Source: Cetorhinus maximus (lineage: Eukaryota). From it: 64,000 nucleotides of DNA. The notes beneath the pieces are model-generated. The model was given only the letters and a program-made list of their open reading frames with translations. It did not search any database and was not told the DNA's origin. Positions 7,835 through 61,959 of the stretch are shown here, piece by piece. The translations under genes and the position numbers were made by a program. The DNA is taken from contig NC_135900.1 of the NCBI RefSeq assembly GCF_964194155.1, positions 10,912,001 through 10,976,000 on the forward strand, given 5' to 3'. Numbering within the stretch: position 1 is the stretch's first letter; each line of letters begins with the position of its first letter.

Positions 7835-8950
7835 TCACACAGAATCACAGTGCAGAAGAGGGACTTCAGCCCATTGAGTCTACATCGACACGTGAGGAAC
7901 ACCTAACCTACCTACCTAATCCCATTTACCAGTACTTGGCTCATAGCCTTGAATATTATGACGTGCCAAGTGCTCATCCAGGTACTTTTTAAAGGATGTG
8001 AGGCAACCCGCCTCCACCACCCTCCCAGGCAGTGCATTCCAGACAGTCACCACCCTCTGGGTAAAAAAAGATTTTCCTCACATCCCCCCTAAACCTCCTG
8101 CCCCTCTCCTTGAACTTATGCCCCCTTGTGACTGACCCTTCAACTAAGGGGAACAGCTGCTCCCTATCCACCCTGTCCATGCCCCTCATAATCTTGTACA
8201 CCTCGATCAGGTCGCCCCTTAGTCTTCTCTGCTCCAACGAAAACAACCCAAGTCTATCCAACCTCTCTTCATAACTTAAATGTTTCATCCCAGGCAACAT
8301 CCTGGTGAATCTCCTCTGCACCCCCTCCAGTGCAATCACATCCTTCTTATAATGTGGCGACCAGAACTGCACACAGTACTCCAGCTGTGGCCTCACCAAG
8401 GTTCTATACAACTTCAACATGACCTCCCTACTTTTGTAATCTATGCCTCGATTGATAAAGGCAAGTGTCCCATATGCCTTTTTCACCACCCCACTAACGT
8501 GCCCCTCCGCCTTCAGAGATCTATGGACACACACGCCAAGGTCCCTTTGTTCCTCAGGACTTCCTAGTGTCATGCCGTTCATTGAATACTTCCTTGTCAA
8601 ATTACTCCTTCCAAAGTGTATCACCTCACACTTCTCAGGGTTAAATTCCATCTGCCACTTATCTGCCCATTTGACCATCCCGTCTAAATCTTCCAGTAGC
8701 CCAAGACATGCAATCTCACTGTTAACCACCCGGCCAATCTTTGTGTCGTCCGCAAACTTACTAATCCTACCCTCCACACAGTCATCTATGTCGTTTATAT
8801 AAATGACAAATAATAGGGGACCCAGCACAGATCCCTGTGGTACGCCACTGGACACTGGCTTCCAGTCACTAAAGCATCCTCCTTTCATCACCCTCTGCCT
8901 CCTACAACGAAGCCAATTTTGAATCCACCTTATCGAATTACCCTGTATCA
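7835..8950 (-). mobile_element. Young 5'-truncated CR1 LINE nested in the LTR element
   Basis: 322-aa open RT frame 7989-8957 (SGVPQGSVLGPLLF, FADDTK, LVRPQLEYCVQFWSP); attctgtg-type tail at ~7835-7855. Confidence 0.93.
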
Positions 8951-11234
8951 CATTCACTCATGCTGTCCTTCCTCTCTAAGCTGAAACAGATAAAGGGTAA
9001 CAAGCGCAAAGCAATACAGCGATGAGCTACATGACGTGTGAGGAGATGTCTTTTTGTTTTTCTTTCCAAGGACTGTCAACGATTTCTTTTTTTCTTCCTG
9101 TGTGTCCTTTTCTTGGTAGCGCTGACCCGTATCTCTGTCTTCTCTTTAATTTCACTGTTGCCTGGACTAGACTCGGGTGCGAGCTGAAAGTGAATGTGAA
9201 TGAGCTCAGTAGTTGGGTTTTCCAACAGCTCTTCTGAGAATTCAGGGCCTTCTAGCTTTACAACTTCAGGGCTTTTACACAGCTGCTGTTTCAGCTCTTC
9301 CAATTCTTTCCTATTCCCATTAATAGTTTGCTGGAGAATCACATATCATTGCCACTTCTCAGCTAATTCGTTTCTTAACTTGGCCAGAGACAGACTTAAC
9401 TCTTCCTTTTCTTCTTCATATCTTTTTAGTGGCACAAATTGGGAGCTGATTGAATTTTGTAGCGCATGAAAGTCCTTTAATAGATTTTCCATTTCCTTTT
9501 GAAGGATGCTGACTTCAGCTTGAATTCTGTCCCGGTATAACAATTCTACGGGCTTCTCCCATTGGGTCTTTGTGTACTCATATTTTCTTGCAGCAACGCT
9601 TCTGGTTTTGAATTGGGAACTTAGCGGGCCCTCAAGATTTATCTCTCCCAGCCAGTTCCTTCTGAGGATACTCGGTCCCCTCCTTGACATTACAAATGGG
9701 GATAATTTTGCAGATTCATACTGCACCTTACTTGACATACCTCTTTCACATTTCTTTCTTTGCCTGTGTATGTGTCAACTTTGTGTCCAAAACTTCTAAC
9801 TTTAAAGGATTAGTTCCTTTACTCAGATATCTAAATGTGTGCTCTCCAATGATGTACATCGACACTCCAGTGTCAACTTCTATCTTAATGGGTTGTCCGT
9901 TAACTGTAATGACTATTTGGATTGGCTCAGTTCACTTGGCTCACTTTGAGGTTATATAACGAATAGATGTCTGTTTCTATTTCTTCTGGCTCTTCCATGA
10001 GATATACTTCATGATTTTTCCTTCTGCCTTTATAGTGTTGTTTTAGCCTTTCTCTGCAGTGCCGCCTTTTTACGTGGCCATAGCGGTGGTAGAAAAAGCA
10101 CTCGACTTGCTTGATTTGTCGTTCGCTCGCTGGCGGCCTGGATGTATTTCTCTCATTCATTTTGTGGGTTTTCATTGCAGTACCATTTGTCTTTCAATGG
10201 TTTGGAGTTAGAAAGCGTTTCCTGCCTTTCCGCGGAGTCCGAGGTTTTTGTGCCTTTTGTTGCTGGACTGTCCCGCTCAACCAGTTGGACGGCGCCATTT
10301 TGTGTATCTTTTATAACTTTGGAATTTCTAACAGCACTCTCCATTGCAGTAGCTGATTCTAATGCCTTATTGAGGTCTACACTCAGCTCGGCTAGCAAAC
10401 GCTTTTGGATAGTATTATCTCCAATCTTGCATATCAGCCAGTCTCTCAACATATCACTTTGGACGTCTCGAATTCACAACGCTCTGTTAATGCCTTTAAA
10501 ACAGCCACATAGTCAGCTATTGTCTCCTCTGGAAACCTGTTCCTTGAATTGAACTTGAAGCACTGCATTGTAACTGAGGGCTTTGGTCTCGGGTGGCTCT
10601 GTGCAGTTTTTATTAACTCATTGAAAGTCTTCGCGGCTGAGGCACTAGGTGACATGAGGCTGCGGATCAGCCCTTGCGTTTTGCTCCCGCATGAGGACAA
10701 AAGAATCGCTCTCTTCCCCTGCGATGTCATTAGTGGTAAAAAAGAACGCTAGGCATTCAACATACTGAGACCAGTCACCTGCAATGGGGTTGAATGGATC
10801 GACATGTCCAAACTGCGGCATCGTGAACAACTGCAAGGGGACTACACTTCTGATAGGCTTTCCAGGTAATGCCAAATTTAGGTGTTTGGCTTACCGCGGA
10901 GTTGCCCTCTCTCTGGGGTCTCTTATCATTTTCTGTCCATAGCCATTTTTCATGTGTTTACCCTTTTAAATGTATTGCCGTTTTAAGAGCAGTCACCGTT
11001 TTTTTAATTCTGTCTCTGCAGCTGTCTGCTTTTCTGTGCTGGGTTTTGTGCTTTTTTTGCTGAGTTTTGGCGGGATCCCTCTGATCGTGATTCTGCAGGG
11101 CTTTTTTTAAATTTTAAACTGCAGCACTGCTTTTTGCTCCGATTGCCAGCTGTCGCCTATTTTACAGGGTAAGTACAGATGTTCTTTCCAATTCTTTGCT
11201 CACGCGTCTTGAAATTTATTTTCTTTTGTTCTTT

Positions 11235-17800: not shown

Positions 17801-20800
17801 ATCATCTATGCAGATAACTTGAATATCATTGCATTTACTGTGGTGGCCATTTTGAAGTGTTTGTAATGTTCTTTTAGATATTTACCAAATCAAGTATATT
17901 TTTTGCAACAAACAAAATGCCATGTTCATGAACATTACAATTGCACAAGGCTGAATCAAAATTCAAGGCTTTTCCTTGAAACCACACCTGGGCTTCATTG
18001 TACAGAAGGCACCGGTACGATTAAAGTCAGTTAATCCACTGTTGGCTTCAATTTGAACGTCATGTTGGGAAGAGACAGCAAATTTGTCCAGAATTCTAAA
18101 AACCAACCGTGTTTCTTTTGTTTCCACAAAAACTTGGCAATACCTTTGAGAAAATGCTTCATGATAACAAAGCTCTAGATAACTTTCATGATCTGAAAGA
18201 GAGAACATTCCTGGAAAGGTTCATTTGTTCCAGTGCTATGCAGTTCAATGAAAACAGTTAACATTTACTACTTTTGGTTTAATTAAAACTGGGTCTATCG
18301 CATGCCATAATATATCTTTATTATATTGCAAAGTATGCTCTATAAAGCCAATGTTCTACTACATCCAGTCTAACTGTAACACACAAAATAAAATCTTCAA
18401 ATGATCTACAGTAGATATCAGGTTTTTTTTAGTTATCTGATTTTATAATGCACTGACTTACGATTTATATGACTATGTGACACACTGTCGTTTTAATTCA
18501 AGGCAACACAGCTCCATAACCAGGGTGAATGGTTTGTCCTTAGTTCCACACTACAGGTAAATATAGCAGCTAATCCTCTGCCTCTCACTAATAGGGAATA
18601 ATTCTTAAAACCATTCATCTTAAATGTATATTGATCTACTTTTCATTCTCATCAAAGCCAGGAAGTGGATACGAAGGGCGGAATCATTCCAGATTTGCAC
18701 AAAGTGCAGTAGCGGACAGGGAAAAAGGACGTTTTATCTGCTAGCCACAGTGGCGGGTTTTCGCGCTGTATCATCCCATTCCCGGTGTGTCCCACCTCAT
18801 TAATAATGCATTCTCAGAAATATGCCAGATTGCTGGTTGGGCAGCCTCTGATTCGCCCACCCCACCTTCACCTCAGGCCTTCAATAATCTGGGTGCCCCT
18901 GCACAGAGCTAGCTCTCTAAGGGATCGGAAACTGCTGAAAAGTCACGGCTGCCCAAAGGAGGAAACATGCCTCCAAAGTTAGCGACGCCTCCCTCGGGCG
19001 CCTACTGGACACAGTGGAGGCCCAGCATGAAGTCCTCTACCCCGCTCTGGGCGAAGGCCAGCAAGCAAGGTCATCAATCCAGCATGGGAAGAGTGGCAAC
19101 GGTGGTCAGCGCCAACACCCAGTAAAAGAGGACAGCCACTCAGTACCGAAAGAGAATGAATGATCTCCGTTCCGCCAGGGTGAGTCACTCTCTTATCACT
19201 CTCAACACTCTCATTCTCAAACCCATCACACATCTACAGGGATCTCACTCACTGCCAGTTCAAAGGACATCATCATTTACTCTCTCTCAAACACTTTCAT
19301 CTGCCTGCGGATCATGTCCTCATCCTGTCCATAGCACCAAGCATCACCCACACATCCCAGGTATCCTTCTCACCTGGCCTGGTGGGTGTCCTGATTACAC
19401 TCTCTCCATCTGTATTCATGCAGGACAAGCTGGCACGCAAAAGGGAGAGGTCGCAGACTGGCGGAGGAATGCCTGACCTCCAGGTCCTCATAGACTTTAA
19501 AAATAGAGCCACCCAGCTGGCTGGTGAAGATCTGGACCGTTCCTGTGCTGACAGTGAGGTTAGCGGTGCTCAACCAAATGAGGATCCAGCAGTGCAACAT
19601 CCATCAGACAACCATGCTGAGTCACTCTCCCTGTTCTGCAGCCCCCTGCCATACACTAATTATCTCTCCTTGCTTTCACAGGAGAAAATTTCAATTTGAA
19701 CATCATGTTGGGAAGAGACAGCAAATTTGTCCAGAATTCTAAAAACTAACCGTGTTTCTTTTGTTTCCACAAAAACTTGGCAATACCTTTGAGAAAATGC
19801 TTCATGATAACAAAGCTCTAGATAACTTTCATGATCTGGAAGAGAGAACATTCCTGGCAAGGTTCATTTGTTCCAGTGTTACACAGTTCAATGAAAACAG
19901 TTAACATTTACTACTTTTGGCTTAATTAAAACTGGGTCTATCGCATGCCACAATATATCTTTAATTATTATATTGCAAAGTATACTCTATAAAGTCAAAG
20001 GGGTCCATGAGCCAGGTCCTCAACTCAAGACCTGATGACACCTCGGAAGAAGAATCTGATGACAATCTAATTGAAGACCCATCACAGCGCTCACCCACAC
20101 CCTCCACCAGTACAGAGACACACACCTCGGTGGGATCTAGTTCTACAGTACCCTCGGCGTCACAATCTGGTGAGCACGTCTGTCTGATCCACAGCAGTCG
20201 GCAGCAGGGACTTCCCAGGTTTCTGACACTCGAAAGACTGCTGGAAGCCAGAGGTCTGCTGAGTCCAAGTCCGATGATGAGCCTCTGGACTCGATCACAC
20301 CTCAGTTGCTGGAACTGCAAAGGCAAGCTTGGGAACATCAGGAAGGGATGTCCGCTGCACTCAGATTGCAAGGCACGATGGAGGAGACTGTCCACCTCCA
20401 GGCTGAGGTGACAGCTCTGGCATGCCAATGCACCGAGGTCAACACTGGTAGGATGGTGGCCGCCACAGGAGACCTTGGGCCAGGCTGTGTGGGCTGGACT
20501 CCGTCGCTGATGTCCTAGTTGGCCTCCAACAGTGTCAATGCAAGAAGGGTGCGAGGCAGCTCGATCTCGCTCCAGTTTCCCCATCCCTTCAAGGAGTCAG
20601 CCAGGGGCCCTCAGGCACCCATAGGGAGGAGGATCAGCAGGTGTACACCCCGGGGCCATCCACCCAGGTGACTCCGGGAGTGTCCAATCCATCCAAATCC
20701 CCTCTTCCTGTGACCCCAACAGCTCCAGCTCCACAGGCTGAGGGTGCCACTGCCACACAGCAGGACCCTGAAAGCAGGCCAGGACCCTCCAGAGGATGCC

Positions 20801-23800
20801 CACCAAGGTCATCACAGACAGGGTGTAGCAGTCAGAAGGCTGCCTCCACCTCCGCTGTGGGTATCGGGGGAGTACCAAGACAAAATGGCAGGGTTAGGAA
20901 GGTTAAGAAGATGTAGTTGTATGGCCTGGACATGAGTGTTAATGACTTGCACTTAATGTTCACTATTATAAATAAATAAATTCCCAAGAATGCCTCCTTG
21001 CCTATGGCTCCTTGTTCTGATGAGCAGTGTCAAAGATCTGTGCAAATCCCAGCGCTCTTGTTTCCTGGCTTTCCTGATCCTGGGCGAAATGCACAAAGTT
21101 CTCTGCCTTTGCAAAGATGGCATCTGTGACCTCCTGGATACACTTGTGCATGGAAGCTTGCAAAATCTTGCACAGGTCACCTGTGGAGCCCTCCATGTCC
21201 CCATGGTGCTAAATCCTGCAGCAGGTGGAATATGTGACCGACCAGCTCCCTAGACATGCAGTCTTCAGCGTTCTCGGTCATTTGCAGGAATGACCGGTAC
21301 CAACTATAGACCCTGGGTCTAGCGAGCCATCTACGAGCAATGGCTCACTGGGGATCTTCAGCTCCGTGCGCAGCAGGCCGGGCCGCTCCTTCATTTTGAG
21401 GGAGGTGCTCCTCCCTTTACCGAGTCAGGCGCCTCCGTCACTTTCTTCTTCTTCTCTGCTCCCTGTAAGCCATGCAGCATACTGCTAAATCACCAGGCTC
21501 CATGATCCTAATGTTCTCCTCCTGTTGGATCAAAGAGAGACCCTTGGGCTAGTGTAGGTGTACTAAGAACCTCTCTTGGTTAAGTCTTAAGGCCCCCTCA
21601 TGCATGCAGGAGAGTGCTGGCCACCACTTGGATGGCCAGTGTGTAGTGCGCTCATTGGCTGTCCAAAACCTCACCCGCCTCTGCCCCACTCCGCTTGACT
21701 GATTGGTGGCAGCTTCAGCCACTGGACTGCACGCTGTATTCTCATCTCACATGCAGGCATTCTCCTAACCCACATTGCAAGGCTGTGCCGTAAGCTTGAA
21801 CCATAACGGATACTGGTCCAAACCTGAATAAAGATATTGCAAGGGGCTTTGAGCACCTCCACCAGTGACTGCGCCATGTCCACCTTTTGCAAGGGAATTG
21901 TATGACTTGCCCAATCGGCCAATTGTTCTGCTGCCCCCTAAAATGCACATTAATTTCAAGTCTGCATCCAAGGGTTGAAAAGTTCTGTAGTATTTTGTGG
22001 CACTTTCATGCTTTTGTGTTACTTGAGTGGGCAGAAAAGCTTCAGAGGCCCAGCTCCAAGTATGTCAATGGAGCTGCAGCTGAACAGTCTCAGCTACAGA
22101 AGAATGCATACCTTTGACAAGCTTTTCCAAATGTATGGCTGCTTCCCTTCCCACTACCACCCCCACGCCTCTGGCTTGATTATTTCCTTCAGTCTGTGCC
22201 GCCTTGTCCCCCCACCCTCTCCAATCTGATATGCGCTGGAGCCCTTGCCCTGGAACCACACTAAAAACCAGCCGGGAGAAACTAACCTGCCTGTGCTCCC
22301 TGCGAATGCACAGTACCTCTTCCCTGATAACCTATAGGCGATGCTCGCAAGCACTGTGCAAGGTTGTGTGCACTCACCTGTAAGTTCGCCTCGAAGTTCA
22401 AGTCACCAGGTGCACGCCTTTTAAAGGCGGTTGTGAAGCACGCCGTTCTGAAGTCACACCAACATGGGTGGTAAATTTGATGTGGGAGGATGCTTCCAGC
22501 AAGCAGGGCTTATAATTAGATGCAAATGTATTAAAATTACATTCCCGACATGCAGTAGAGGGAAATGTGGCCCGCCATTGAAGTGGACAATCACAAACTG
22601 GTTTCACGACGGCATAAAACTGATTTTTGACATTTTTTGCCATTTTGTTGTCCCCCCCCCCCTCAACCTGTCATGATGCCTGATGCCAACGAGGCCAAAA
22701 ATGTCCGACCTAAATCTTTTGTGGACTTTCATTTCTGATTTCTCTCTGTAAATGACAACCTAGTTAGCGTGATGTATAAACTGTCCAATCCGAAATCTGA
22801 TCTTATGTTGTCTGAGGAAACCACCAATTTGGTACCTTAAGAAATGCACGATATTTTTGTAGTTGCAAATTTGACTATTTAAATATATAATCCTTGCTGT
22901 TTTTGTTTATACCCACCAAATAAATCCTACCCTCCATTTATTAATTATGCATTTATTATCAGTACGATAATATGATAATAGTGAAGTTAAAGGAATGTTC
23001 TCTTAGGTTTCCGCACTCCCTGGGATTAACTTTAGCACTTACCTTTGCTTTGTAAAAAGGCAAAAACCATCAGGGGAAGTGTTTTATTTATTAATTTATC
23101 ATTAAATATTATTATTTATTATTAATTTGTTTATTTATTGCATTATGTCATGAAAACATAATTTTCATAAAATTATTCTAATTTATTGTAAAGAAAATTA
23201 TTCTAATTTATTGTAAAGGTATGTTAATAGTGGGGTTTGGATTAGTTTTTCTGTGTATAGGTGTGTGTGTGGGTTTTAATTGAATTACAGACAGCTGGTC
23301 TGGGCGCTTTGCTGTATCAGAAGAGAAATTAGGTTTGAAATGCTAACTCTAAGTATGGCTGAAATTTTAGAATGTGAGGTGTGAAGAACATTTGCAATTT
23401 TAGATAAACCAGAGTTGTGAATTTCAAAGAGATGGTAAAGTGTTACACCTAGCCAACAGAGGATAAGCAAACATTGTTTATTTTTCCCAAAGATTACTGA
23501 TAATGAGTGTTGGGAAAGATTTTCAAAAAGTAGTTACAAAGACATATTGGGACAATGGAATTTGCATTAAAAAGGGGAGAAACATGTATAAAGGAGATAT
23601 GCCTCAGGGAGATTTCTGCGCTCTTTCATGCGCATTCGCAAAAGAGCACGCTCCCAACTCTGGGAACTACCCCCCCAACCCCCCAAACCACCAGCACAGG
23701 GAACGCACAGCGCTTCCAGGTGCATGTCACACTGGGCGGGCCTTAATTGGCCAGCCCATGTAAAATGGAGGCGCAGACCCGATCGGGAGTACCAATCATG

Positions 23801-26594
23801 TCTATGCCCACCCCCGTACAACCCCCCCAATGGGGAAAATTCTACTCTGGGAGCTAGATTAATTATGGGATTTAGCAGTTATCATGGTAGTAATTTGTAG
23901 ACCTATGTATGTGCTTAAAATGATTTCAATTATTAATAAATGCTTAATTTAGTTTTGTAAAAAAACCTCTAAGACTCGGTCTTATTACTACTGAATTCAA
24001 GGCACGCATCTTGAAATAAAAATACAAATTGCAAAATAGTTGTGGCAGCTGTTTCAAGTTTCCCTCTGGGATTTGAACAGGTTAGCATTTACCATCCACT
24101 GTGCCATAACAATTATCACAAGTACCTAAATGTTGTAAGGCAAGAAACCAATAAACATATTCTCATCATCTCTGTAATGTCTTTCTTTTATTCTTTCACG
24201 GGATGTGGGCATCGCTGATAGGCCAGCATTTATTGCCATCCCTAATTGCCCTTGAGAAGGTGGTGGTGAGCTGCCTTCTTGAACCGCTGAAGTCTGTGTG
24301 GTGTAGGTATACTCAGTGCTGTTAGGAAGGGAAATCTACCCATTAGAGAAACATTGAAATGGCCAATTTCTACAAAACTGGCCCTGAAGTGTGGTACGAC
24401 ACCATGGGCTTGATTTTCAATCTGGGTTTGGGAACTCCATAACAAAAACAGAATTACCTGGAAAAACTCAGCAGGTCTGGCAGCATCGGTGGAGAAGAAA
24501 TCAGTCAACGTTTCGAGTCTTCATGACCCTTCGGCAGAACTTCTGCCGAAGGGTCATGAAGACTCGAAACGTTGACTGATTTCTTCTCCACCGATGCTGC
24601 CAGACCTGCTGAGTTTTTCCAGGTAATTCTGTTTTTGTTTTGGATTTCCAGCATCCGCAGTAGCTTCTAGCTTTTTGTTTTTATCTTTGGGAACTCCATG
24701 CCTGGATCATTTTTGGGTCCGGTTTCTGTGGCATTCTGCATCACTGAGGCATTACTATCTTTCAAATCCAGATCCCCCAGTTGGACCAGAGACAAGTTTG
24801 ACACGCAATTAATGGTGCAGAGTGCTACAAGGAGGTGGAAGCTGACTGCTGAGTATAATCCTCAAAGGCAGATGACAGCCAGGACTGGGCTTGCCTCTGC
24901 CTTGCAGAATAGAGGAGACAGAAAATCAGAGGGCTCGCAGCCTCTCAGCAGAGAGAAGTGGCCAAATGCCAACAAAAAATTACTGCACTTGATCTGAGCC
25001 AATAACCCTTTTTGGCAAAATGTTTACTTCAGATAAATATGATTTGATGGCTCCCCTACATTGTGCCCAAAAGCTGTGCACTAATATGCTCCAGAATGTT
25101 TGGTCTGCCAATCTGCGACTTGAAACTTATCTTCTAGCCCTCCCCAGCCCATTACCCAGCTCCTCAAGGAGTTTAAAAGGCAATTAATTGGAGGTAAGTG
25201 GATTCCTAATTTCCCCACCCGCCCTTGCTTTGAAAATACCAGCACACCCCAGAGGCATCAGGACACTGACATGCCATCCAGAGTGGCATTTTCAAAGTGT
25301 GCTCGCAGCCAATCTTGCCCCCATGGTGATTGAAAATCAAGCCCCATGATGTTCAACCCTGATTAGGGATTCCACAGATAGAGGAGGCTTTGCACATTCC
25401 ATTGTGCTTCAACACTACTGACATGAATAGCGAAGAGATGGACCTTTTCTTCAACATACTCCCCATTTCATTGGCTAAAATAACATGGCAAACAAACTTC
25501 ACGTTATTAATTCAACTTAATAAAATTTTGTTCAATGTTTTCTTTTCTCTTTGATTTGATAATGTAATAATGTAATGATTGAGGAATGAATCTAACAACA
25601 GTAAACTTTCCCAAGTCCAATTTCAAACAATGACGGGAAGTTATTTTTCAGTATATTGACTGAAGAATAACCTCTAATCTGTGTCCTTGAGGAAGAGGTT
25701 GTTTCAATAACACAAGTAGCCAATTGTGTTAAAAGCTGAGCCAAGAACAGAACTGTAGTTGACCTTATTACAAGATCACACGATAAGCTTACCTGTTTGC
25801 AAAGGAACTAAATCCATGGGATACAACTTGTCAATGACATCACTACAGTTTTTCAAAACTGCTTCTCCTAATTCTTCAACTGTCCTAAAAATTTTGACAG
25901 GTAATCCTTTATTGACTATCTTTTCCTTCAGCTCCCTCACTCTCCGTTCCTCATAATGATCTCTGTGGTTATATTTACTCGCTATCATTTCCCTTTTATC
26001 TTGTGGGACATGCAAAAGTATATCATCGACATACTGGGAATCTCGGAAATAAAAGAAGCTGAACACAGAGTCATTCAGTAAAGCTGCTTCAGTTATCTCG
26101 AGCTCTAGCAGACTGCAGTTTTTGTATTCTTCGCGCAATATCCAAGAGTAACCGTTTCTTGCTGCGATATGAATATTCCTTTCTACCTTGGATAAAGCTT
26201 CCATATCCATTCTACCCGCTGGAGAGCACTCTGCATCTGGTGGGCAATACTCACCATATTTCTGACCTAACATGCATATGAAGAAAGGTGAGCATTTTGA
26301 GATGAAGTCTAGTGAAACCTTTAGCTGGTGGGAATCTGTGCTCTGGCGATGGCTTCCTTCGTGTGATGTCCACTGCATATCTAATACTTTAAAGCAGCTT
26401 CTTCTGGTGTTACAGAGTTCACTTAGAAGAGGAAAAATATCATTTTCCAAATAGTTTCTTTCCTCTTGAAAATCCTCACATGTTGAACAGAGATATACCT
26501 GAATGGGTGGTCGATAGGTGAAATCTGGGTGGCATGTAAGACATTCACTTTCCTCTGTCTTGGATTTGCTCTGTCTTTTTATACATTCATTCAT
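11872..26594 (-). CDS. TTC41: TTC41-like protein (DUF4062-like N-terminus + STAND/NACHT-type P-loop NTPase), 5' part; further exons not found in the window
   Basis: Phase-consistent GT-AG exons 26594-25793, 18210-17988, 15006-14792, 13624-13461, 12322-11872 (~618 codons, no stop); PPIQVYLCST..DFQEERNYL, SPFFICMLGQKYG, Walker A CGEKGCGKST, Walker B CVLVLDGADQL, FSWLPWPLPAQCKLIVTT; head-to-head with HSP90B1 like mammalian TTC41. Confidence 0.85.
12712..13395. mobile_element. Decayed Harbinger-type MITE
   Basis: GC-rich island with termini aggcaaactttt / aaaaatcttgccc. Confidence 0.45.
14098..14251. mobile_element. 154-bp Harbinger/Tourist-like MITE
   Basis: TIRs gggtagaactt / aagttctgccc; TTA target-site duplication at 14095-14097 and 14252-14254. 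Confidence 0.75.
15050..16705 (+). mobile_element. CR1 LINE fragment (decayed ORF2 + 3' tail)
   Basis: DKAPGPDEMHPRILKE, NYRPVSLTSVV, SQHGF..SCLTNLLEFF, LERVQKRFTRMVPGM; tail gattctgtgatt. Confidence 0.9.
16925..17260 (+). mobile_element. tRNA-derived SINE-like repeat
   Basis: A/B-box-like head; shares ggcagg..taagagcaggaga..cagcca core with 47400-47640. Confidence 0.5.
18676..22710. mobile_element. PIF/Harbinger DNA transposon (decayed) with convergent Myb/SANT gene (+) and HARBI1-like transposase remnant (-)
   Basis: + strand spliced Myb/SANT remnants (SDASLGRLLDTVEA..AWE.VA..VSA..RTATQYRKRMNDL, donor 19180; DKLA..RERSQTGGG; acidic S/T/P-rich exon from ~20000); - strand GDLCKILQASMHKCIQEVTDAIF at 21002-21196; ends gggcggaat / atgtccgacc followed by TAA. 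Confidence 0.85.
19690..19994 (-). repeat. 305-bp duplicate of TTC41 exon/intron sequence 18047-18347 inside the Harbinger element
   Basis: Manual alignment: 10 substitutions plus one 4-bp insertion; acceptor AG retained at 19855-19854. Confidence 0.95.
23169..23218. repeat. Perfect 25-bp tandem duplication
   Basis: aaaattattctaatttattgtaaag x2. Confidence 0.9.
23590..23850 (-). mobile_element. MITE fragment related to 4031-4841
   Basis: Reverse complement of the gggcgggccaattaaggccc / aagagagcaggaatctcc segment. Confidence 0.6.
24406..25344. mobile_element. Harbinger-type MITE with perfect 17-bp TIRs
   Basis: GGGCTTGATTTTCAATC at 24406 and its reverse complement ending 25344; 3-bp TSD CAT on both sides. 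Confidence 0.85.
24441..24685 (+). mobile_element. Penelope-like pseudo-LTR fold-back insertion
   Basis: 99-bp perfect inverted arms 24441-24539 / 24541-24639 plus ~46-nt tail; 14-bp TSD tttgggaactccat; same sequence as the pLTR at 46220-46368. Confidence 0.9.
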
Positions 26595-29418: not shown

Positions 29419-29597
29419 CCGTCCGTCGCCCCGGCCCCCCCCACCTCTCCCCCTCCCCCCGCTTTTATTGAAGAATCCAAGTGAAGCGGCGAGGAGAAAA
29501 CTCGGCTCAATCTCCCAGAGAGGACGCGCGGTAGCCCCGGGGGGTAGGGAAAGATCAGTCGGAAAGCTCAGGGCCTCTCTCCTCTCCTCTCCTCACC

Positions 29598-43104
<13,507 letters not shown>

Positions 43105-43320: not shown

Positions 43321-45281
43321 ACTTTTCCACAAACTTGTTCAAGCTTGATTTAGGTTTCATATTGTACAATTTTAAGATATCAATTTTAGTTGAAACAATT
43401 TTTTTGGGGTGTGGGTGGAAAGGAAGTGTTTCCCTATACATGTTGCCAGGATTTTTAAAAAAATGGTACGGGCTGAAATTTTTCTCAAAAGGTACAAAGC
43501 TGAGGGCCTGGATAGTGGATGGGAAAGGCTTTTATTTGCTTTAGCAGAAAGATCAATGACTAGGGGGCATAAGATTTAATGATTGGTAGAAAGATTAGCA
43601 ATGTGGATTTTTTTCATAGGGTTCAGGGTAGTAGATTAGAAATGTTCAACTCAAGGTGTCAGCATAGGCACCTAAAGTGCTGTAATAAGCAGAGCTAGAC
43701 CAAATACTGGAAAGTGGGGTAGGCCAAGTGACTTCTGCTAACTTTCCAAAATTCTAACTTCGCCTTTTGAATAAGTAGGTAATAAGATTGTAGCCTTGTC
43801 ACTTTCATAAGAGTCCATTGAGCATCAAGCTGTATGGCTAGTAATCTCTAACTTGGAGTAAGGATTTTCCTCTTGCTAGAGGCTGAATATTTGTCATTCA
43901 CAATCAAATGTAGTATTGGCACTTCAGGACAAACTGGATAGCTTTACCAATCACCTTGGTAATTTTTTTCCTCTTCTAAGTGTTTGGATTAACCAGTTCA
44001 ATTAAATCTGTTGGCACAACTCTGCCTTCCAGAACACAACTTTCCACTTAAGTTTCCTTATGTTGCTTGGATCTCTTCCAGTTAACTTAAATCTGTAGTG
44101 TTGCAGTGGTATTGATTTTCATATTGTTTTGTGTAGGAAGAGATCTTAAACTCTCCACTCCCAAGTACTTTTTATTCTTAACTGTCAATAGTAAAATGTA
44201 TTATAGATTTTCCTCTAGTGACATCCCAGTTCTTCAGAAGATGGGTTTTTAACTCATTTCAACTAGAATCCTGCAAGTTGCCTGTTAGTTTCAGAGTATG
44301 ACCAGATCTGAAGATGAGTTTATAGGTTTTTAAACTTGCATTAGTCAAAATTTAAGGAATTATTGTCTGAAGTGCTTGTTTAAGCCCACTTGAGTAATCA
44401 GGAACATGAGGTAAGCCAGAGTGGCAACTTATTGATCTGCCTGCCTTGCTGGGACAATTATTCCACAAGCTGAACTGAGTCATTCATAACAAAAACAGAA
44501 TTACCTGGAAAAACTCAGCCCAACCGTGTCCGGCCTATCTCCCGTGCATCCGCCCTCATGCCTTCTCCCAGAAACATGATAGGGTTCTCACTTATCACCC
44601 CACCGGCCTCCACATTCAAAGGATCATCCTCTGCCAACTCCAGCATGATGCCACCACCAAACACATCTTCCCTTCACCCCCCCCCCCACCGGCGGCATTC
44701 CGTAGGGATCATTCCCTCCGGGACACCCTACTCCTCAACCCCCACCTATGGCACCTCCCCATGCCCACGCAGAAGATGCAACACCTGCCCCTTCACTTCC
44801 TCTCTCCTCACCGTCCAAGGGCCCAAACACTCCTTTCAAGTGAAGCAGCATTTCTCATTTCCCCTTAGTCTACTGCATTCGTTGCTCCCAATGCGGTCTC
44901 CTCTACATTGGAGAGACCAAACGTAAACTGAGCGACTGCTTTGCTGAACACCTGCAGTCTGTCCGCAAGAAAGACCCAAACCTCCCTGTCGCTTGCCATT
45001 TTAACACTCCACCCTGCTCACTTGCCCACATGTCTGTCCTTGGCTTGCTGCATTGTTCCAGTGAAGCCCAACGCAAACTGGAGGAACAGCACCTCATCTT
45101 CCGACTAGGCACTTTACATCCTTCTTGACTGAATATTGAATTCAACAACTTTAGATCTTGAACACCCTCCTCCGTCCCCACCCCCTTTCCGTTTCTTCCC
45201 CCTCCCTTTTGTTTTTTCCAATAATTTATATAGATTTTTGTTTTCCCACCTATTTACATTATTTTTAAATCTATACCTGTA

Positions 45282-45848
45282 ATGCCCTGTCAGTCTTTCC
45301 ACCCCACCCCCACTAGAGCTGTACACATCTTCCCTTCACCCCCCCCGACGGCATTCCGTAGGGATCGTTCCCTCCGGGACATCCTGGTCCACTCCTCCAT
45401 CACCCCCTACTCCTCAACCCCCACTTATGGCACCTCCCTATGCCAACGCAGAAGATGCAACACCTGCCCCTTCACTTCCTCTCTCCTCACCGTCCAAGGG
45501 CCCAAACACTCCTTTCAAGTGAAGCAGCATTTCACTTGCATTTCCCCTAACTTAGTCTACTGCATTCGTTGCTCCCAATGCGATCCCCTCTATATTGGAG
45601 AGACCAAACGCAAACTGGGCGACCGCTTTGCAGAACACCTGCGGTCTGTCCGCAAGAAAGACCCAAACCTCCCTGTCGCTTGCCATTTTAACACGCCACC
45701 CTGTTCTCTTGCCCACATGTCTGTCCTTGGCTTGCTGCATTGTTCCAGTGAAGCCCAACGCAAACTGGAGGAACAGCACCTCATCTTCCGACTAGGCACT
45801 TTACAGCCTTCCGGGCTGAATATTGAATTCAACAACTTTAGATCTTAA
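45282..45848 (+). CDS. Penelope GIY-YIG endonuclease domain (C-terminal fragment of the element ORF)
   Basis: CQRRRCNTC Zn motif; NLVYCIRCSQCDPLYIGETKRKLGDRFAEH; VACHFN; GTLQPSGLN. Confidence 0.85.
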   Translation: MPCQSFHPTPTRAVHIFPSPPPTAFRRDRSLRDILVHSSITPYSSTPTYGTSLCQRRRCNTCPFTSSLLTVQGPKHSFQVKQHFTCISPNLVYCIRCSQCDPLYIGETKRKLGDRFAEHLRSVRKKDPNLPVACHFNTPPCSLAHMSVLGLLHCSSEAQRKLEEQHLIFRLGTLQPSGLNIEFNNFRS

Positions 45849-46218
45849 ACTCCCCCCTCCCCCCATCCCCACCCCGTTTCTCCCCCCTCCCTTTTTTTTC
45901 AATAATTTATATAGATTCTTCTTTTCCCACCTATTTCCATTATTTTTAAATCTAAAACTAAAACTTTTTTAGTCTTTCCATCCCACCCCCACTAGAGCTG
46001 TACCTTGAGTATCCTGTCTTCCATTCTTAATTAGCACTTTTCTCAGACAATATCACCACCTTCAACACCTCTTTGATCCTTTTGTCTGTGACATCTTTTG
46101 ATTATCTGCTCCTATCACACTGCTTGCTTATCTCCACAATCACCACACCCTCAACTTCTCTCTCCCCCCGCCCCCACACCTTAGACCAGCTTATATTTCA
46201 CTTTTCTCCTAACTATAC

Positions 46219-46261
46219 TCAGTTCTGCCGAAGGGTCATGAAGACCCGAAACGTTAACTGA
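46219..46261 (+). ncRNA. Minimal type-I hammerhead ribozyme motif, variant core CUGCCGA
   Basis: Stem I UCAGUU/AACUGA; CUGCCGA-A; stem II GGGUC-AUGAA-GACCC; GAAA; palindromic ACGU helix III; lies in a Penelope pLTR. Confidence 0.7.
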
Positions 46262-46571
46262 TTTCTTCTCCACCGATGCTGCCAGACCTGCTGAGTTTTT
46301 CCAGGTAATTCTGTTTTTGTTTTGGATTTCCAGCATCCGCAGTAGCTTTTAGCTTTTTGTTTTTATCTCTGTACCTTGAGTGTCCTGCCATCCATTCTTA
46401 ATTAGCACATTCTCTTAGATAATATCACCACCTTCAACACCTCTTTGTTCCTTTGTCTGTGACATCTTTTGATTATCTGCTCCTATCACTGCTTGCTTGT
46501 CCCTACAACCACCGCCCCCCACCCCCCCAACTTAAACCAGCTTATATTTCACCCTTCTCCTAATATTACTC

Positions 46572-46610
46572 AGTTCTGTTGAAGGGTCATGAGGACTCGA
46601 AACATCAACT
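46572..46610 (+). ncRNA. Second minimal hammerhead-like motif, core CUGUUGA
   Basis: AGUU-CUGUUGA-A-GGGUC-AUGAG-GACUC-GAAAC-AUC-AACU in the second pLTR. Confidence 0.55.
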
Positions 46611-47160
46611 CTTCTTCTCCACCGGTGCTGCCAGAACTGCTGATTTTTTCCAGGTAATTCTGTTATTGTTTTGGATTTCCAGCATCCACAGTAGTTTTTT
46701 GTTTTTATCTCTGAGTCATTCATAACCCCACTGGTTGAGTCTAGGATAATTTAGTTACCCTTTTTTTCATCTTGCAAAGCTAGTTTCTCATTCCAATGTC
46801 AGCACAAGTAATCAAGTTCATATCACATGTATAAACCACTTTTGTGCTTTATAAATATTTGACCTTCAAATGTAGGTCTGGCATATTAAGTGCATTTCCT
46901 TTTTACTTCCAATGCAAGGAAAATTAAAGTTATGGGAGATGGGTGTTACAGTTCTGCTTTTCTGCAGTTAGGTGGTGCAAGAATTATACTAGTTTATTTG
47001 ATCCTTATAGAAATGGTTCATGCAACACCAGCCTTTGAACAGTTTAATAGCCCAGTAAAGAATCTTAACATGTTAATCATGCCCACATTTTTAAATATAG
47101 ATCTGTCATGTCATCTACATTTAAATAAATTCAAGTTGGATCATAGCTGTCCCATATACT

Positions 47161-55300: not shown

Positions 55301-55649
55301 TATACTAAGTAAAATGACATAGGGCGTACAATACAGAAACAAGCCGTTCAGCCTCTTTGACATTTATGCTCCACTGACGTCTCCTCCAGTCTTTCCTCGT
55401 CTAATTACCAGCCCAGCCCTCTTAAGGCGACAAATCAGATCAGCCACGATCGTACTAAGTGGCGGAGCAGGCTCAATGTTCCATTTCTTATGCTCTTATT
55501 CCCATTTTCCTCATATGCTTGCGTAGCCTCGCCTTAAATGCACCTATAGCATTCACCTCAACAGCTCCCTGCCAGAGCCAGTTCCACATTCCCATCACTC
55601 TCAACAAGTTTCTTCTGAATTCCCGGGTCCCTCATCAGCCATGATCTCA

Positions 55650-56720
55650 CTGACCGGCGGAACAGGCGAGGCTCGAGGGGGCTAAATGATTCCCCGCCCC
55701 GCCCCGCCCCGCCGTTCCTCCGGGGACACCACAGCTCCCACTCGTGCAAACGTATTTACAAAGGGGACCCCAGCCACACTTACCCTCTCCTCCTGTCCCC
55801 GGCCCTCCCAAACCTTTCACTTCCAGCCTGTGTAAAGGAAGGGGGGGGGGGGGGGAATGTGCTTCACTCACAACCGTCCCTCCTGCCGCGCCGCACCACA
55901 AACATTCGTTCCGCCCTTCGGAAACAGCCGTCTGGCGTCTGCGGCTTCCTCCATCCATTAACCAGAGCGAACTTTAAAACCAAAAAAAATGAGTCACTGG
56001 TAACGCTCATTCCCCAACCTTCTCAATCCTCCACTAACCATAACCCCCCCTCTCTCACTCACTCAGAGCTCACCGTTAGGAACGGAACCTTCAGCCCAGT
56101 TCAAATCGGCTTCGGAATATACCAATACTGAAAGAGGGGGGATAACAATACATTAGATGTGAACAATCTTACCTCGAAGGCAGTGAGTGAACACATAAGG
56201 TAATTTATCCATTTTTTTTAACTCTCTTTTACTCACTTTAGTCCGGGTTGATGTTTGACTTTTATGATCTTTCGTACTCTGGAATTTCAGGCTCGCCCCC
56301 CGCCAAACGTGGAAGGAGGGGATTTGGTGGAGTCCGGGCCACGTGCGCCCCCTGCGGCAGTGGGCGGGTGGCCCCTTTTGTTTGGCGGGGCTGACGAGCG
56401 TCTGCTGTTTCCTCTCGGAGGTAGTGATGGAGGCGCAGGGCCCGGGGCTGCAGTGCGAATACTTCCACGATTGGTGAGTCAGCGTAGGCAGAGCCCGTCG
56501 TTGCGGGAATCAGGTCCTGTCCTTCTCCTCCTCGATCCCGGAACACTGACTAACCATCTTTCCCCCCTTCTTTGTGTTAACCTTCAGGTCCAGCAGCTCC
56601 GGCCTGCCGCTTCTCCAGCCGGCCCAGGCCCAGACCCAGGCACCGACAGGGCCCGATCCCTTCAACGTGGAGGAGGCCGCCGCAGCAGCCTCGCCGCCAG
56701 AGGCCGGACAGGGTAAGAGA
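55650..56720. promoter_or_regulatory. CpG island / bidirectional promoter of UQCC6 and TDG
   Basis: High CpG density; GC boxes; E-box CACGTG 56340-56345; inverted E2F-like CCCGCCAAA 56299-56307 and TTTGGCGGG 56381-56389; candidate minus-strand donors near 56172 and 56236. Confidence 0.65.
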
Positions 56721-59700
56721 ACGTCCCCAGGCCTGAATAAAAGAGTTTCATATTGTGAAACTCGTCGCACAACAACAGCAGCCGCAGCAGCAACAACTCC
56801 GCCTGGAATATGTTCTGAAAGAAAGATAAATCCTAGCTCTTCCTGCCACTTGTTGACTGTCTCAGTGCTGCGTGAAGGGGAGTGAACTGATTAAGATACC
56901 AGAACAAGGAGCTGGAGCTTCTCTGTTACACCTTTTTAATATAATAAAACAACCCACAGAGACACAAGATAAACAATTATACCGAGACACATAAGGAGAT
57001 TTTAAGCCAGATGACCAGAAGCTTGGGCAAAGGAGCAGGTTTTAAGGAGTGTCTTAAGGGAGGAAAGCGAGGTACAGAGGCTTAAGGAGGGAATTCCAGA
57101 GCTTAGGGCCCAGGTAGCCGAAGGCAAGGCCACCAGATTTAAATTGGGGGTTCTCAAGAAGCCAGACATGGAGGAGTGGAGATATTTCAGAGGGTTATAA
57201 AGCTGGAGCAAATTATAATGATGATTTTGTGGGGGGGGATGAAGAGAGGGTAAGGGCATGGAGGGATGAGAATTTTTAAAAACAAGGTGTCACTTGATTA
57301 GTAGGTCAGTGAGCACAGGCGTGATGGGTAAACAGGACTTGGTTTCATCACTTTAAAAATAAGGGATCGCCCATTTAAAACAGATGAGGTGAATTTTTTT
57401 TTCCTTCAGAGGGTCGTGAGTCTTTGGAATTCTCTTCCTGAAAAGGTGGTGGAAGCAGTCTTTGAATATTTTAACGGCAGAGGTGGATAGATTCTTGGTA
57501 AGCGAGGGGGTGGTGATAGGTTATCGGCGGTAGGTGGGACGCAGATTTCAGGTTACTATCAGATCAGCCATGATCTTATTAAATGGCGGAGCAGGCTTGA
57601 AGGACTGAATGGCCCACTCCTGCTCCTTGTTCATATCATGAGCAGCAGGGTTTTGGATGACCTCAAGCTTATGTAGGGTAGAAAGTGGGAGGTTGGCCAG
57701 GAGTGTGTTAGTATAGTCAAAGACATGAATAAGGGTTTCGGCAGCAGAACACTTGAGGTGGAATAGGTGATGTTATGAAAGGAGGCCTCGGTGACAGGGA
57801 TGGAAGTTTATCTTGGGTTCAGACATGATACTAAGGTTTCAGTATAACTTCAGACAGTTGCCGGGGGAGGGATGGCATGAGTGGCTAATGTTTGTGGTGG
57901 GGACTAATGACAATAGCTTAGGTCTTCCTGATATTTAGTTAGAAGAAATTTCTGCTCATCCAATGCTGAATGCCAGACAAGCGGTTTGACATTTGAGAGG
58001 TGGTGGGGGGGGTCAAGAGAGGTGGTGGTGAGGTAGAGCTATGTCCCGTCAGCATGTGTGTGGAAAGTGGAGCTGTGTTTTTAGATGAAATTGCTGAGGG
58101 GCAACGTGAGGAATAGGACAGGGTCAAGCATAGACCCTTGGGCACACCAAAGGTAATGGTGCAGTAGCAGGAAGAAAAGCCATTGGAAGTGATACTTTGG
58201 CTACAGTTAGATAGGTGAGATTAGAGCCGGGTGAGTGCAGTTCCAACTAGTTCACTGTTTTGGTTGAGGAAGGTTTGGTCAACTTTCAAAGGTGCAAGCA
58301 TGTTGAGAGGATGACAAGGGATGGTTCACCACTGTCAAAGTTATATAGTATGCTCTGGGAGAGATGGACACAGAATTGGGAGGCAATGGCACATTCAAAG
58401 ACTTTGGAAAGGAAAGGGATGCTGAAGATGAGGCGGTAGTTTGCAGGGCTGGAAGAGTCAAGGTTGGTTTTATGATGGGATAGGGTGATGGCAACAGTTT
58501 TGAAGGAGTGGAGCACAGTACCTGAGGAGAGAAAACTTAATGTCAGCTAATATGGGAGTTAGGAAGAGAAATTGGTTGTTTAGCAGTTTAGTGAGAATAG
58601 GTTCAAGGGAGCGAGATGAGCTCAGAGATGGCATGAGGAGAGAAACTAGAGAAAAGTGAGAGTTTAGAGCAGGAGGAAGAATGTGCAATAGGATGTGTTG
58701 CCCGCACCCCGAAAGTGATTTAAGTTGTTGTGAGATGACACTTGATTCAGCTTTGTGCACCTTGTTCGTTTTATTAACTTCATCACAATCAACTCAATGC
58801 TAAAATTGAATATGCATGTGTAAGTAGCTGCTTGTTTTGAGCTGACCATAAGATTTCAGATGTGAGCCCCAAAACCAACAGAGTCGACAGCATCATCAGA
58901 CTTCTTAATTTGTGGCATTTAATTACATCACTAACGGTTACTAATGTTGCTTCATATATTGACACGTTTTACATATGAAAAATGTATTTTGTGTAACTAC
59001 AAATGTAGGGCCTCAATAAATTCTAAAGCCATTTGAAAGGTAGAGGGAAAGCTATAATACAGAATTTTTGGGACGGAGTAATAATGTTCTGTAAAGTGAT
59101 AGAAAAGTATATTGCAAATATATCAGCCCTGTGTCTTTTCAGCCTCAATACTATATGTAATAATTTCCTCTTATATCAACCATCTTATATACTGCTACAG
59201 TGATGTTACTGTTGTATTTAGACTGTACTGCTATAAAAATAAAACTGATGAATTAGATTAATTCCTTCCCTTCATTTGTGACACCTGTTTACTTTTATGC
59301 CACAAATTAAGGAACAATAAGTGTTAACTCTGGGTTATTCAGCAGAATAATCCATCTCTAAACTGACAGAAACTGAAGCGTTAATTCTCCTCTGTTCGTC
59401 CCTGGTGCTGTACACATAGTTTGAGGTGATAACAGTGGTGTATTGTGTTGCTGCACAAACCATTTTTTTACATGGTGTTTCACAGACATAGATACTGACT
59501 TGCAACATTGCAATTTAAATCCTGCTACTAGTGGCAATTCTGACTCTGGCACTAATATAAACAAAACTCCTCCCAACAGTATGGAGACTTGCCTCAAGAT
59601 TCACTTTTGACCATAAGTAATAAATATGTCATGTGCTGGTAGCCACCATTTTGTTCCTGCTGTGAATGGGCAGACGGTTCTCAACCAGTCTTGTATCCAT

Positions 59701-61683
59701 TAACGTAATTTTTGTGTCACTGGCATATAGTGGACTTTCTCCCAAGAAGATTTGTGGCCAGAAACTTTAGAATCACAATGGGTTTTCATTTTGTAAATCT
59801 TTTCCTCAAAATTTATCTTAAATAGACATTACTCTATGGCTTTTAAAAGTACATAACTTTGCTGAAGTGTCATTCTAGGTTTGTGTCAGTGATAAAACTT
59901 GTCAAAGTCAGTGACTTGAGCTATGGATGAAATCTTCCCTGATGCAGTGGTGATTGATCATAAGTTCATAATAAATAGGAGGAAGAGGCCATCATACCTG
60001 CATCACCATTTCAATAGGAATGTGGCTAATCTGATTGTGGCTATAATTCCACTTTCCTGCACGCCACCCCCCCCACCCCCCAATAATCCTCGTTGGCTCC
60101 CTTGTAGATCAAAAATCTGTCTAAATCAGCCTTGAATATATTCAATGACCCAACCTCCACTGCTATCTGGGAGAGAATTCCAAAAACTAGCAACTCTCTG
60201 AGAGCAGTTTCTCCTCATCTCTATCTTATTTTTAAACTGTTCCCCCTCGTTCTGGACTTCCCCCATGAAGAAATATCCTTTCAGCATCTACAGAATCTTA
60301 TGTTTCAATGAGATCACCTTTCATTTTTCTAAACTCCAATGAGTAAAGGCCCAACCTGATCAACCTTTCCTCTTAAGACAACCCCGTTCATTCCAGGAAT
60401 CAACCTAGTAAACCTTCTCTGAACCGCTTCCAATGCAAGTATATTGCTTCTTAAGTAGGGAGAACAAAGCTGTACACAGTGCTCTAGGTGCGGTCTCACC
60501 AATGTGCTGATTGGTTGTAACAACACTTCTCCACTTTTATACTCCATCCCCCTTGCAATAAAAGCTAACGTTCCATTTACCTTCCTAATTATTTGCTGTA
60601 CCTGCAGGCTAACTTTTTGCCGTTCTCATACTAGGACACCCAAATTCCTCATTGGTATTCTGCAGTCTCTTTCCATTTAAATACTGCTCTGCTTTTCCGT
60701 TCATCCTGCCAAAATGGGCAACCTCCCACATAAAACTCTTCATTTGCCAAAATTTTTGCCCACTCGCTTAACCTATATTTATACCTTTGCAGTCTTTTGT
60801 TTTTCCCTCACAACTTGCTTTCCCTATCTATCTTTGTATCGTCTGTAAATTTGGCTACAATACAGTCAGTCCCTTCATTAATATAGATCATAAATAGTTG
60901 AGGTTCCAGCTCTGATTGCTATGGCACTCCACTCTTTACAGTTTGACAACCTGAAAATTATCCATTTATCCTGACTCTCTATTTCCTGTTAGTTAGCCAA
61001 TCCTCTACCTATGCTAATATATCACCCTCAACATCATGAGCTCTTATCTCGTGCAGTAAATTTTTATGTGGTGCCTTAACGAATGCCTTTTGGAAATCCA
61101 AATACTCTTCGGCTGGTTTCTCTTTATCCATTCTGCTTGTTACATCCCCAAAGAATTCTAATAAACTTGTCTAACACCGTTTCCCTTTCACAAACCATGT
61201 TGACTCTGCTTGTTTGTATTATGATTTTCTAAGCATCCTGCCATTACCTCCTTAATAACATTTTCCCAATGACAACTCTTAGGGTAATTGGCCTATAGTT
61301 TCTTGCTTTCTGTCTCTCTCTTTTTTTGAATAAAGGTGTTATGTTTGTGGTTTTCCAATTCACTGGGACCTTTCCAGAGCCTAGGGAACTTTAAGCTGCA
61401 CACAAAAACCACAAGCCATTTCAAGATTTGGTGTTATTGTGTTCTTTCAGCAGCTCCAAAACGTAAAAGAGGAAGACCTCCAGGATCGCAGAAAAATAAG
61501 TCTGAAGGAACAAGCACCAAACGTGGCAAAACAGATGGGAAATCAGGGGGGAAGCAGGAAAAAATCACCAATGCTTTTAAAGTTACAAAAAGAAAAATTG
61601 ATCGATTCAATGGAACAACTGAAGCTGAACTTTTAACAAAAACCTTACCGGATATATTGACCTACGGTTTAGACATTGTGATT
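56427..61683 (+). CDS. TDG: G/T mismatch-specific thymine DNA glycosylase, first three coding exons (continues beyond the window)
   Basis: Exons 56427-56473, 56588-56712, 61451-61683, phase-consistent; exon 3 KQEKITNAFKVTKRKIDRFNG..EAELLTKTLPDILTYGLDIVI matches the start of the TDG catalytic domain. Exons 1-2 are supported by splice signals and phase only. Confidence 0.9.
56995..58860 (-). mobile_element. Decayed L2-type LINE with a CR1 3' fragment inserted (~57350-57635, +)
   Basis: KTNLDSSSPANYRLIFSIPFLSKVFECAIASQ; IQHWMSRNFF; SSLKTLLKT. Confidence 0.75.
59980..61390 (-). mobile_element. Decayed CR1 LINE
   Basis: MEYKSGEVLLQ..LVRPHLEHCVQL..LEAVQRRFTRLIPG. Confidence 0.85.
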
Positions 61684-61959
61684 GTGAGTTAACGTTTCCC
61701 GTTATTTTATTAATTTGATTTAGTCCGATTGAAATGAGCAGAAGATTGTTCTAGATCATGATTAAGTCTCCAGAGAAAAAGATTAAATATTTTTATGGTG
61801 AAAGCAACATGATAAGAAACAGAAATCTGTCAGGTACTTGAATGAGAACGGTGCAGGGATATGTGTTCTTGTATGCTTTAGCATAGTGGCAAGCTTCAGA
61901 TGGCTTTTGTTGTCTCCTTTCCTTGGGGAGGTTAATTAAAGATTAACTCTATCCAGTGC

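Follow-up and report, generated by a model that had tools for sequence, protein, structure and literature searches.

Host gene fragments enclosed within DNA transposons bounded by terminal inverted repeats (TIRs), known in animals as Pack-TIRs, have been surveyed on a large scale (Tan et al., 2021; PMC8277862). In this survey, 370 animal Pack-TIRs were recovered, nearly all of them single-copy, and they were attributed to transposition-independent gap filling. It has been reported that 160 out of 281 lie within 15 kb of their donor, with a median of 224 bp and an exonic share of 13.4%, while microhomology, present at the breakpoints in 67.6% of the published cases, is not obligatory (PMC8277862). 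Twenty-one of the rows in Supplementary Data 1 of this study are PIF-Harbinger elements, from two frogs and the alligator, and by our own count 15 of these 21 lie within 15 kb of the donor.

We describe here a related arrangement in the basking shark, within a window (the whole stretch of DNA analysed) of 64,000 nucleotides. Our main reading, which we hold with a probability of about 0.8, is that the first coding intron of TTC41 holds a Harbinger element in which a 309-bp copy of the neighbouring exon and intron replaces about 21 bp. Break repair in the resident element most likely produced this copy at a later time; no second one was found elsewhere, and in related sharks conversion with the exon has likely overwritten part of it. 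The copy is best read as a single-copy, cis Pack-TIR which would have been made by gap repair.

As in the published single-copy Pack-TIRs, a TIR element surrounds a host fragment with a cis donor less than 5 kb away and a small internal deletion (PMC8277862); here, host sequence lies between contiguous parts of the element, its donor is identified 1.6 kb away in cis, the fragment is single-copy and about 21 nt were lost. Fragment size is also similar (309 bp against the published median), and an old element, an exonic donor and a PIF-Harbinger host are common to both. In contrast to the published set, the species is a shark, the sole cartilaginous fish surveyed there, the elephant shark, having 0 cases; the element is a formerly coding one of 4 kb, whereas the 21 Harbinger rows concern consensus elements of 260-497 bp; one junction carries a donor-matching filler; and there are signs of later conversion with the donor, while the term 'gene conversion' occurs 0 times in the main text of that study (PMC8277862). 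Plant Pack-MULE, Pack-CACTA and Pack-TYPE elements likewise hold a host gene fragment between TIR arms (PMC8903248, PMC6379663), but they are often multicopy, mobile and derived from trans donors, whereas the present one is single, in cis and without sign of movement (PMC8277862, PMC8903248, PMC6379663). An earlier note on this DNA had presented such capture as little documented for vertebrate Harbingers, a statement that the 21 frog and alligator rows already in print contradict (PMC8277862). For sharks, no publication on Harbinger capture was found in a thin and incomplete literature search. Captures of this local kind have been recorded in animals before, in Harbinger transposons as well, and the present locus is real, old and ordinary in kind.

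TTC41 has been described as one of the TeTIR/STAND proteins, inactive in the authors' cell assay and a pseudogene in human (10.64898/2026.09.21.753143). Its exons within the window are intact. Coding exon 1 (25791..26594, minus strand), which puts the element within the first coding intron, matches TTC41 proteins (24 matches, the best at 94% to white shark P0001), and some of the protein matches carry PF13271 in this region. The basking-shark protein P0025 matches five exons of the window at 98.6-100%. Coding exon 2 (17988..18210, minus strand, 223 nt, donor 17988|17987) was delineated by tblastn with P0025, at 100% over residues 268-342, together with splice sites read from the sequence. Two in-frame acceptors, 18 nt apart, are present in this exon (18210 and the alternative 18192), and shark proteins differ in the one that they imply: the residues GMFSLS are found in P0001, P0005 and P0025 and not in P0002, P0003, P0004 and P0006. 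The captured exon length is 164 nt with the acceptor used by the former and 146 nt with the downstream acceptor implied by the latter.

Elsewhere in the window, exon-like open stretches on the plus strand (about 29500-40100) lie head to head with TTC41 and encode peptides which we take to resemble HSP90B1/endoplasmin. An open stretch near 61330-61689 (plus strand) presumably resembles TDG, and a GC-rich, promoter-like region is present near 55600-56900 (plus strand, within about 55600-61700). A MITE-like palindrome of about 220-260 bp, with 94-98% self-complementarity, occurs in several copies, at 24431-24689, 42193-42433 and 46221-46713, and tandem duplications are seen at 44661-46713.

The donor segment (18047..18351, minus strand) consists of part of TTC41 coding exon 2 and of the intron upstream, and it ends 325 bp outside the left end of the element. 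Window self-BLAST and alignment revealed its duplicate at 19690..19998 (minus strand), in the same orientation and 1643 bp away from start to start, with 95.1% identity (E 1e-138), 11 substitutions and one 4-nt insertion on the copy side. The copy contains the 5' part of exon 2, both acceptors and 141 nt of upstream intron, without the final 59 nt of the exon and without its splice donor; it is sense to TTC41 and antisense to the transposon Myb gene. The duplication announced in the earlier note is hence real. The start of the copy, the 164 nt of exon (with the acceptor of P0001, P0025 and P0005), the 4-nt insertion and the 10 substitutions within the limits first drawn were all recovered; the end, placed at 19994, is in fact 4 nt further on, the intron part exceeds the 137 bp announced, and the full extent adds the eleventh substitution. 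That note had also advised a genome-wide search for the loaded element elsewhere: across the 3.99-Gb assembly, the 309-nt copy matches 2 places only, the donor and the copy itself (both of the 2 candidates being scored), with no third match of the segment. A retrocopy was rejected, as intron is included in the copy.

The element that carries the copy is an old one of 4.0 kb (18676..22710, no strand assigned), with a Myb/SANT gene on the plus strand and a nuclease remnant on the minus strand. PIF/Harbinger transposons have short TIRs and a 3-bp AT-rich target site duplication (TSD). Both ends were set from 19+19 other copies and consist of 9-bp imperfect TIRs, the left one intact and the right one damaged, next to a degenerate 3-bp TSD (GAA at 18673-18675, TAA at 22711-22713). 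Among 20 fetched siblings, both ends were called in four, with TSDs (TTT/TTT, CTT/CTT, TAA/TAT and TAT/TAC) looser than the TWA preference. DDE_Tnp_4 (PF13359) scored above the Pfam cut-off in all six nuclease-side sibling pieces (best E 3e-25), and Myb_DNA-bind_5 in one of three sibling pieces (E 1e-4), a second being below the cut-off and the third giving no match; for these reasons, the element is assigned to the PIF/Harbinger family, in keeping with the proposal that the copy lies within a Harbinger. The window nuclease remnant matches one sibling nuclease piece at about 70%, and the two window Myb fragments gave no Pfam match. The C-terminal part of the nuclease gene is gone through an internal deletion of about 1.2-1.3 kb (21030..21036, no strand), a gap on both sides of which siblings align, the nuclease piece matching only up to 21035. 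End-bypass transduction was rejected as a source of the insert, which is internal, with both element ends in place.

Probes placed at the insert site and at either end of the element gave at least 8,000-10,400 candidate places per probe, of which 40 were scored. Six family copies (L092-L097) are found at about 6.0-8.8 Mb of a single 19-Mb contig (C40); they are 82-95% identical (at most 94.6%) inside the element, have distinct flanks and are closer to one another than copies elsewhere (median of about 84-87%). Segmental duplication was rejected for them because the likeness stops at the element boundary, and this cluster may represent a younger subfamily, local hopping or local conversion; it may also mean that transposase was present in trans. 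In another copy (L025, near 1316-1410), the second Myb intron holds a 96-nt insert which, by eye, resembles a LINE/SINE 3' end.

The break site (19682..20000, plus strand) falls 1 nt into the predicted third Myb exon, as judged from sibling loci and from empty-site joints in reads. All 27 loci with both flanks (26 distinct elements) have a family segment of about 21 nt at this place, and the insert is present in none. This count comes from 28 loci, chosen as the best among 40 scored out of 10,403 candidates, and thereby leans to close relatives; L012, with a single flank, and L022, which duplicates the element of L017, were left out. The flanks are contiguous in 26/26 of these distinct copies, which confirms that they are parts of one Harbinger. 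In the window, the family segment is replaced by a 7-nt filler (19683..19689, plus strand), the 309-nt copy and one base. The filler in the form of this genome matches 8 nt of the donor (18148-18155), and in the form of two related organisms, B and C (19685 = C), it matches 9 nt (18077-18085). With random fillers against the same-strand donor, such matches have p = 0.015 (8 nt) and p = 0.0065 (9 nt); they are weaker against a wide two-strand neighbourhood (p = 0.1 and 0.04, respectively), and either form may be the ancestral one.

The left junction has this filler and no direct microhomology, and the right junction has partial likeness only, amounting to 3 exact nt at most should this copy have lost a CpG. 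The motif tcaa, put forward as microhomology at both junctions, proved to lie inside the copied segment at both ends; family sequence at the left break lacks it, and the donor of this genome has ccaa instead at the right end, so that it is no two-sided microhomology. Its interpretation as a TSD was rejected as well. The copy, first placed about 10 bp after the acceptor of a Myb/SANT exon, starts 8 nt past the predicted acceptor (19681|19682), but its orientation is opposite to that of the Myb gene, so that the captured acceptor does not pair with the transposon exon. A fusion with the Myb exon was discarded, the strands being opposite and the upstream donor, the second one predicted for the Myb gene of the window element, having also lost 2 nt.

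Read contigs from 4 runs were compared, 76-100% of each being read. In organism B, one contig crosses the left junction with 32 nt on the left and 37 nt on the right, and contigs span both element ends. In organism C, two samples from two studies yield 137-nt contigs that match each other and cross this junction with 18 aligned nt to its left. As for the right junction, none of the contigs listed bridges it by 31 nt on each side, X7 record 31 having 9 nt on the left. Since contigs of B and C carry the left junction, the insert is old and not an assembly artefact, and both the element and the insert are older than the split of organism A from B and C. The locus is hence no fresh snapshot of capture, as had been proposed. 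Flank divergence of organism A from B and C amounts to 3.3-5.1% pairwise, and we assume that this split took place tens of millions of years ago. A date for it is not given in the accessible parts of PMC11886822. In organism B, the contigs taken as the copy stop matching at 19963, one of them with 32 further unaligned letters, and the B copy may have an indel near its right end (19963-19990).

Among the 11 differences between donor and copy, 8 belong to the copy line, 7 of them by direct reading and the eighth by inference from counts, and the other 3 to the host line of this genome. Copy-line change (8 in 305 nt, 2.6%) is lower than that of the element, which on either side of the insert differs by 6.7-7.0% from the family majority at non-CpG sites (Fisher p = 0.003). 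This suggests that capture took place well after insertion of the element, which is likely and not proven, because conversion resets divergence and the gap in age is no proof of later capture.

The following sequence of events would account for the locus. 1) The element inserted 325 bp from the donor segment, in an ancestor shared with organism B, which has both ends. 2) A break would have occurred 1 nt into the third Myb exon, and the broken end would have copied nearby same-strand DNA, with a short first extension (the 7-nt donor-matching filler) and then the 309-nt extension; the right arm would have been rejoined with at most partial microhomology, by gap filling or synthesis-dependent end joining. 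3) The insert was in place before the split of A from B and C; in the element, 1.3 kb of nuclease sequence is gone and the right TIR is damaged, and no loaded copy was found elsewhere. 4) After the split, at least one exchange of sequence between exon and copy probably took place in the B/C line. Templated insertion during break repair, as first proposed, is supported as the most likely origin by the local copy in a contiguous Harbinger and by the left junction in related species. Short templated inserts have been described as characteristic of end joining by Pol theta (PMC7454005), and the insert resembles them in being copied from nearby DNA with a small deletion at the junction; its main tract of 309 nt is longer than these inserts, which measure 2-35 nt (PMC7454005). 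Involvement of Pol theta would be a guess.

Capture could instead have been linked to transposase, through abortive excision, through gap repair at the time of insertion or soon thereafter, or through nicking by transposase acting in trans, later conversion then giving the copy a younger appearance than that of the element. Since the B/C line shows signs of conversion, a reset of divergence is possible, and the younger C40 group suggests long family activity. Nonetheless, the break lies in the interior, some 20% of the way along the reconstructed element, and only about 21 nt were lost, whereas large deletions close to the ends are expected from excision repair (PMC8277862); conversion over nearly the full length, not long before A and B split, would also be needed, and we regard this alternative as unlikely. 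Mobilisation of the Pack type is not borne out, given the single copy, the 1.3-kb deletion and the damaged right TIR. A re-transposed loaded element with new TSDs was sought in this genome only, where there is no third match and 0/26 other distinct copies are loaded.

The copy could also have been kept for a function, as an alternatively spliced TTC41 pseudo-exon (frame-neutral, of 174 or 156 nt, or a poison exon) held alike to the exon by selection together with conversion. A weak cryptic donor, CCT|GTGAAA, is predicted at 19678..19680 (minus strand), and its GT at 19679, if used, would close a frame-neutral pseudo-exon of 174 nt (or 156 nt) without a stop. Both acceptor AGs are kept with an open frame up to this phase-keeping GT, the two changes of this genome in the conserved 146-nt part are synonymous, and the copy is kept in three species. 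However, the candidate donor is far from consensus, two silent changes out of two are not significant, the C copy has 2 replacement changes and 1 silent change in 104 nt, and the repeat is in none of the 10 shark TTC41 proteins listed over this stretch (7 with the motif found), within the residues listed. A retained pseudo-exon is accordingly given little credence, and a neutral pseudo-exon is most likely the simplest reading of the persistence of the copy. Purifying selection on the copy was also considered and is unsupported.

Exchange between exon and copy is indicated by bases which they share in organism C. Within the 164 captured exon bases, the hosts of A and C differ at 19751 and 19764 only. 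At these positions, both the host and the junction-linked copy of C have T and A, while the host and copy of this genome have C and T. Relative to the A host, the C host has Arg changed to Gln at 19751 and Thr changed to Ser at 19764, and P0001 has the same residues as C. Outgroup proteins from four more distant sharks have Thr at the codon of 19764, so that the B/C state is derived. Variants 19685, 19706, 19735 and 19763, the last one copy-only and adjoining 19764, follow one another at less than 31 nt, and this spacing lets k-mers tie them together and thus link the C copy bases to the junction. With one origin of the copy and later changes in common, transfer between exon and copy would follow. 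These data point to an exchange, in either direction, after speciation in the B/C line.

Parallel mutations or chimeric contigs could also produce the bases shared in C. It is true that 19751 is a CpG site and that contigs can be mosaic, as X1 and X3 are. Yet 19764 is a non-CpG transversion beside the copy-only change at 19763, k-mers tie the variants from 19685 to 19763 to the junction, two studies give an identical contig span and variants, and parallel mutation at both sites has a probability of about 5e-4 to 5e-3 under assumed rates; this explanation is very improbable. Organism B has a single contig over 19690-19899 at about 2.1x depth (29.6 against 13-15), and the probability of no change over this interval is 0.004-0.05. 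This is consistent with near identity of host and copy, which bubble removal in contigs may overstate. One B contig (depth 6.6 of 67) lacks the third shared site, 19920. Further to the right, the variants 19942 and 19948 occur in the B host alone, and the A copy and the B contigs taken as the copy have 19951 in common, a pattern that would mark the end of a conversion tract. Similarly, in the concerted evolution of tandem duplicated exons, nearby exon copies are homogenised by conversion (Dscam, PMC3236188; newt sodium channel, 10.1101/2021.03.25.437018), although the partner is here a truncated, donor-less putative pseudo-exon in a transposon. Conversion between a Pack element and its donor was not found in print in a thin literature search, PMC5861414 covering, in its accessible parts, GC-biased conversion only.

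Contig depth in organism A is 108-131 over the donor against 43-56 in unique flanks (about 2x), and one donor-region contig carries five copy alleles; donor and copy thus collapse into one in this organism, and the empty bin at 19712-19912, of depth 0 in runs X1 and X2, is explained by copy reads collapsing onto the donor. An assembly artefact, by haplotype or repeat mis-join, can be dismissed despite this empty bin and the lack of a junction contig among those listed for organism A, as the collapse accounts for the former, the 11 substitutions and the indel set donor and copy apart, as the earlier note had argued, and the left junction with its filler, for which an artefact is refuted, is present in contigs of B and C.

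As a capture, the locus is one more case, from a shark, of a class already in print, and alters little. The apparent conversion, in turn, means that identity between copy and donor (about 95-96% here, in a copy common to three species) can understate the age of cis Pack-TIRs. A further, doubtful possibility is that the copy has been a long-lived conversion partner returning unselected mutations to TTC41: the Thr to Ser and Arg to Gln changes of the B/C line would have arisen in the transposon-borne copy and been converted into the exon, the copy possibly being also spliced as a frame-neutral extra exon. More generally, cis Pack-TIR copies could pass mutations to coding exons, and slowly evolving genomes of sharks that hold the family in thousands of copies would be a good place to measure the frequency of such conversion.
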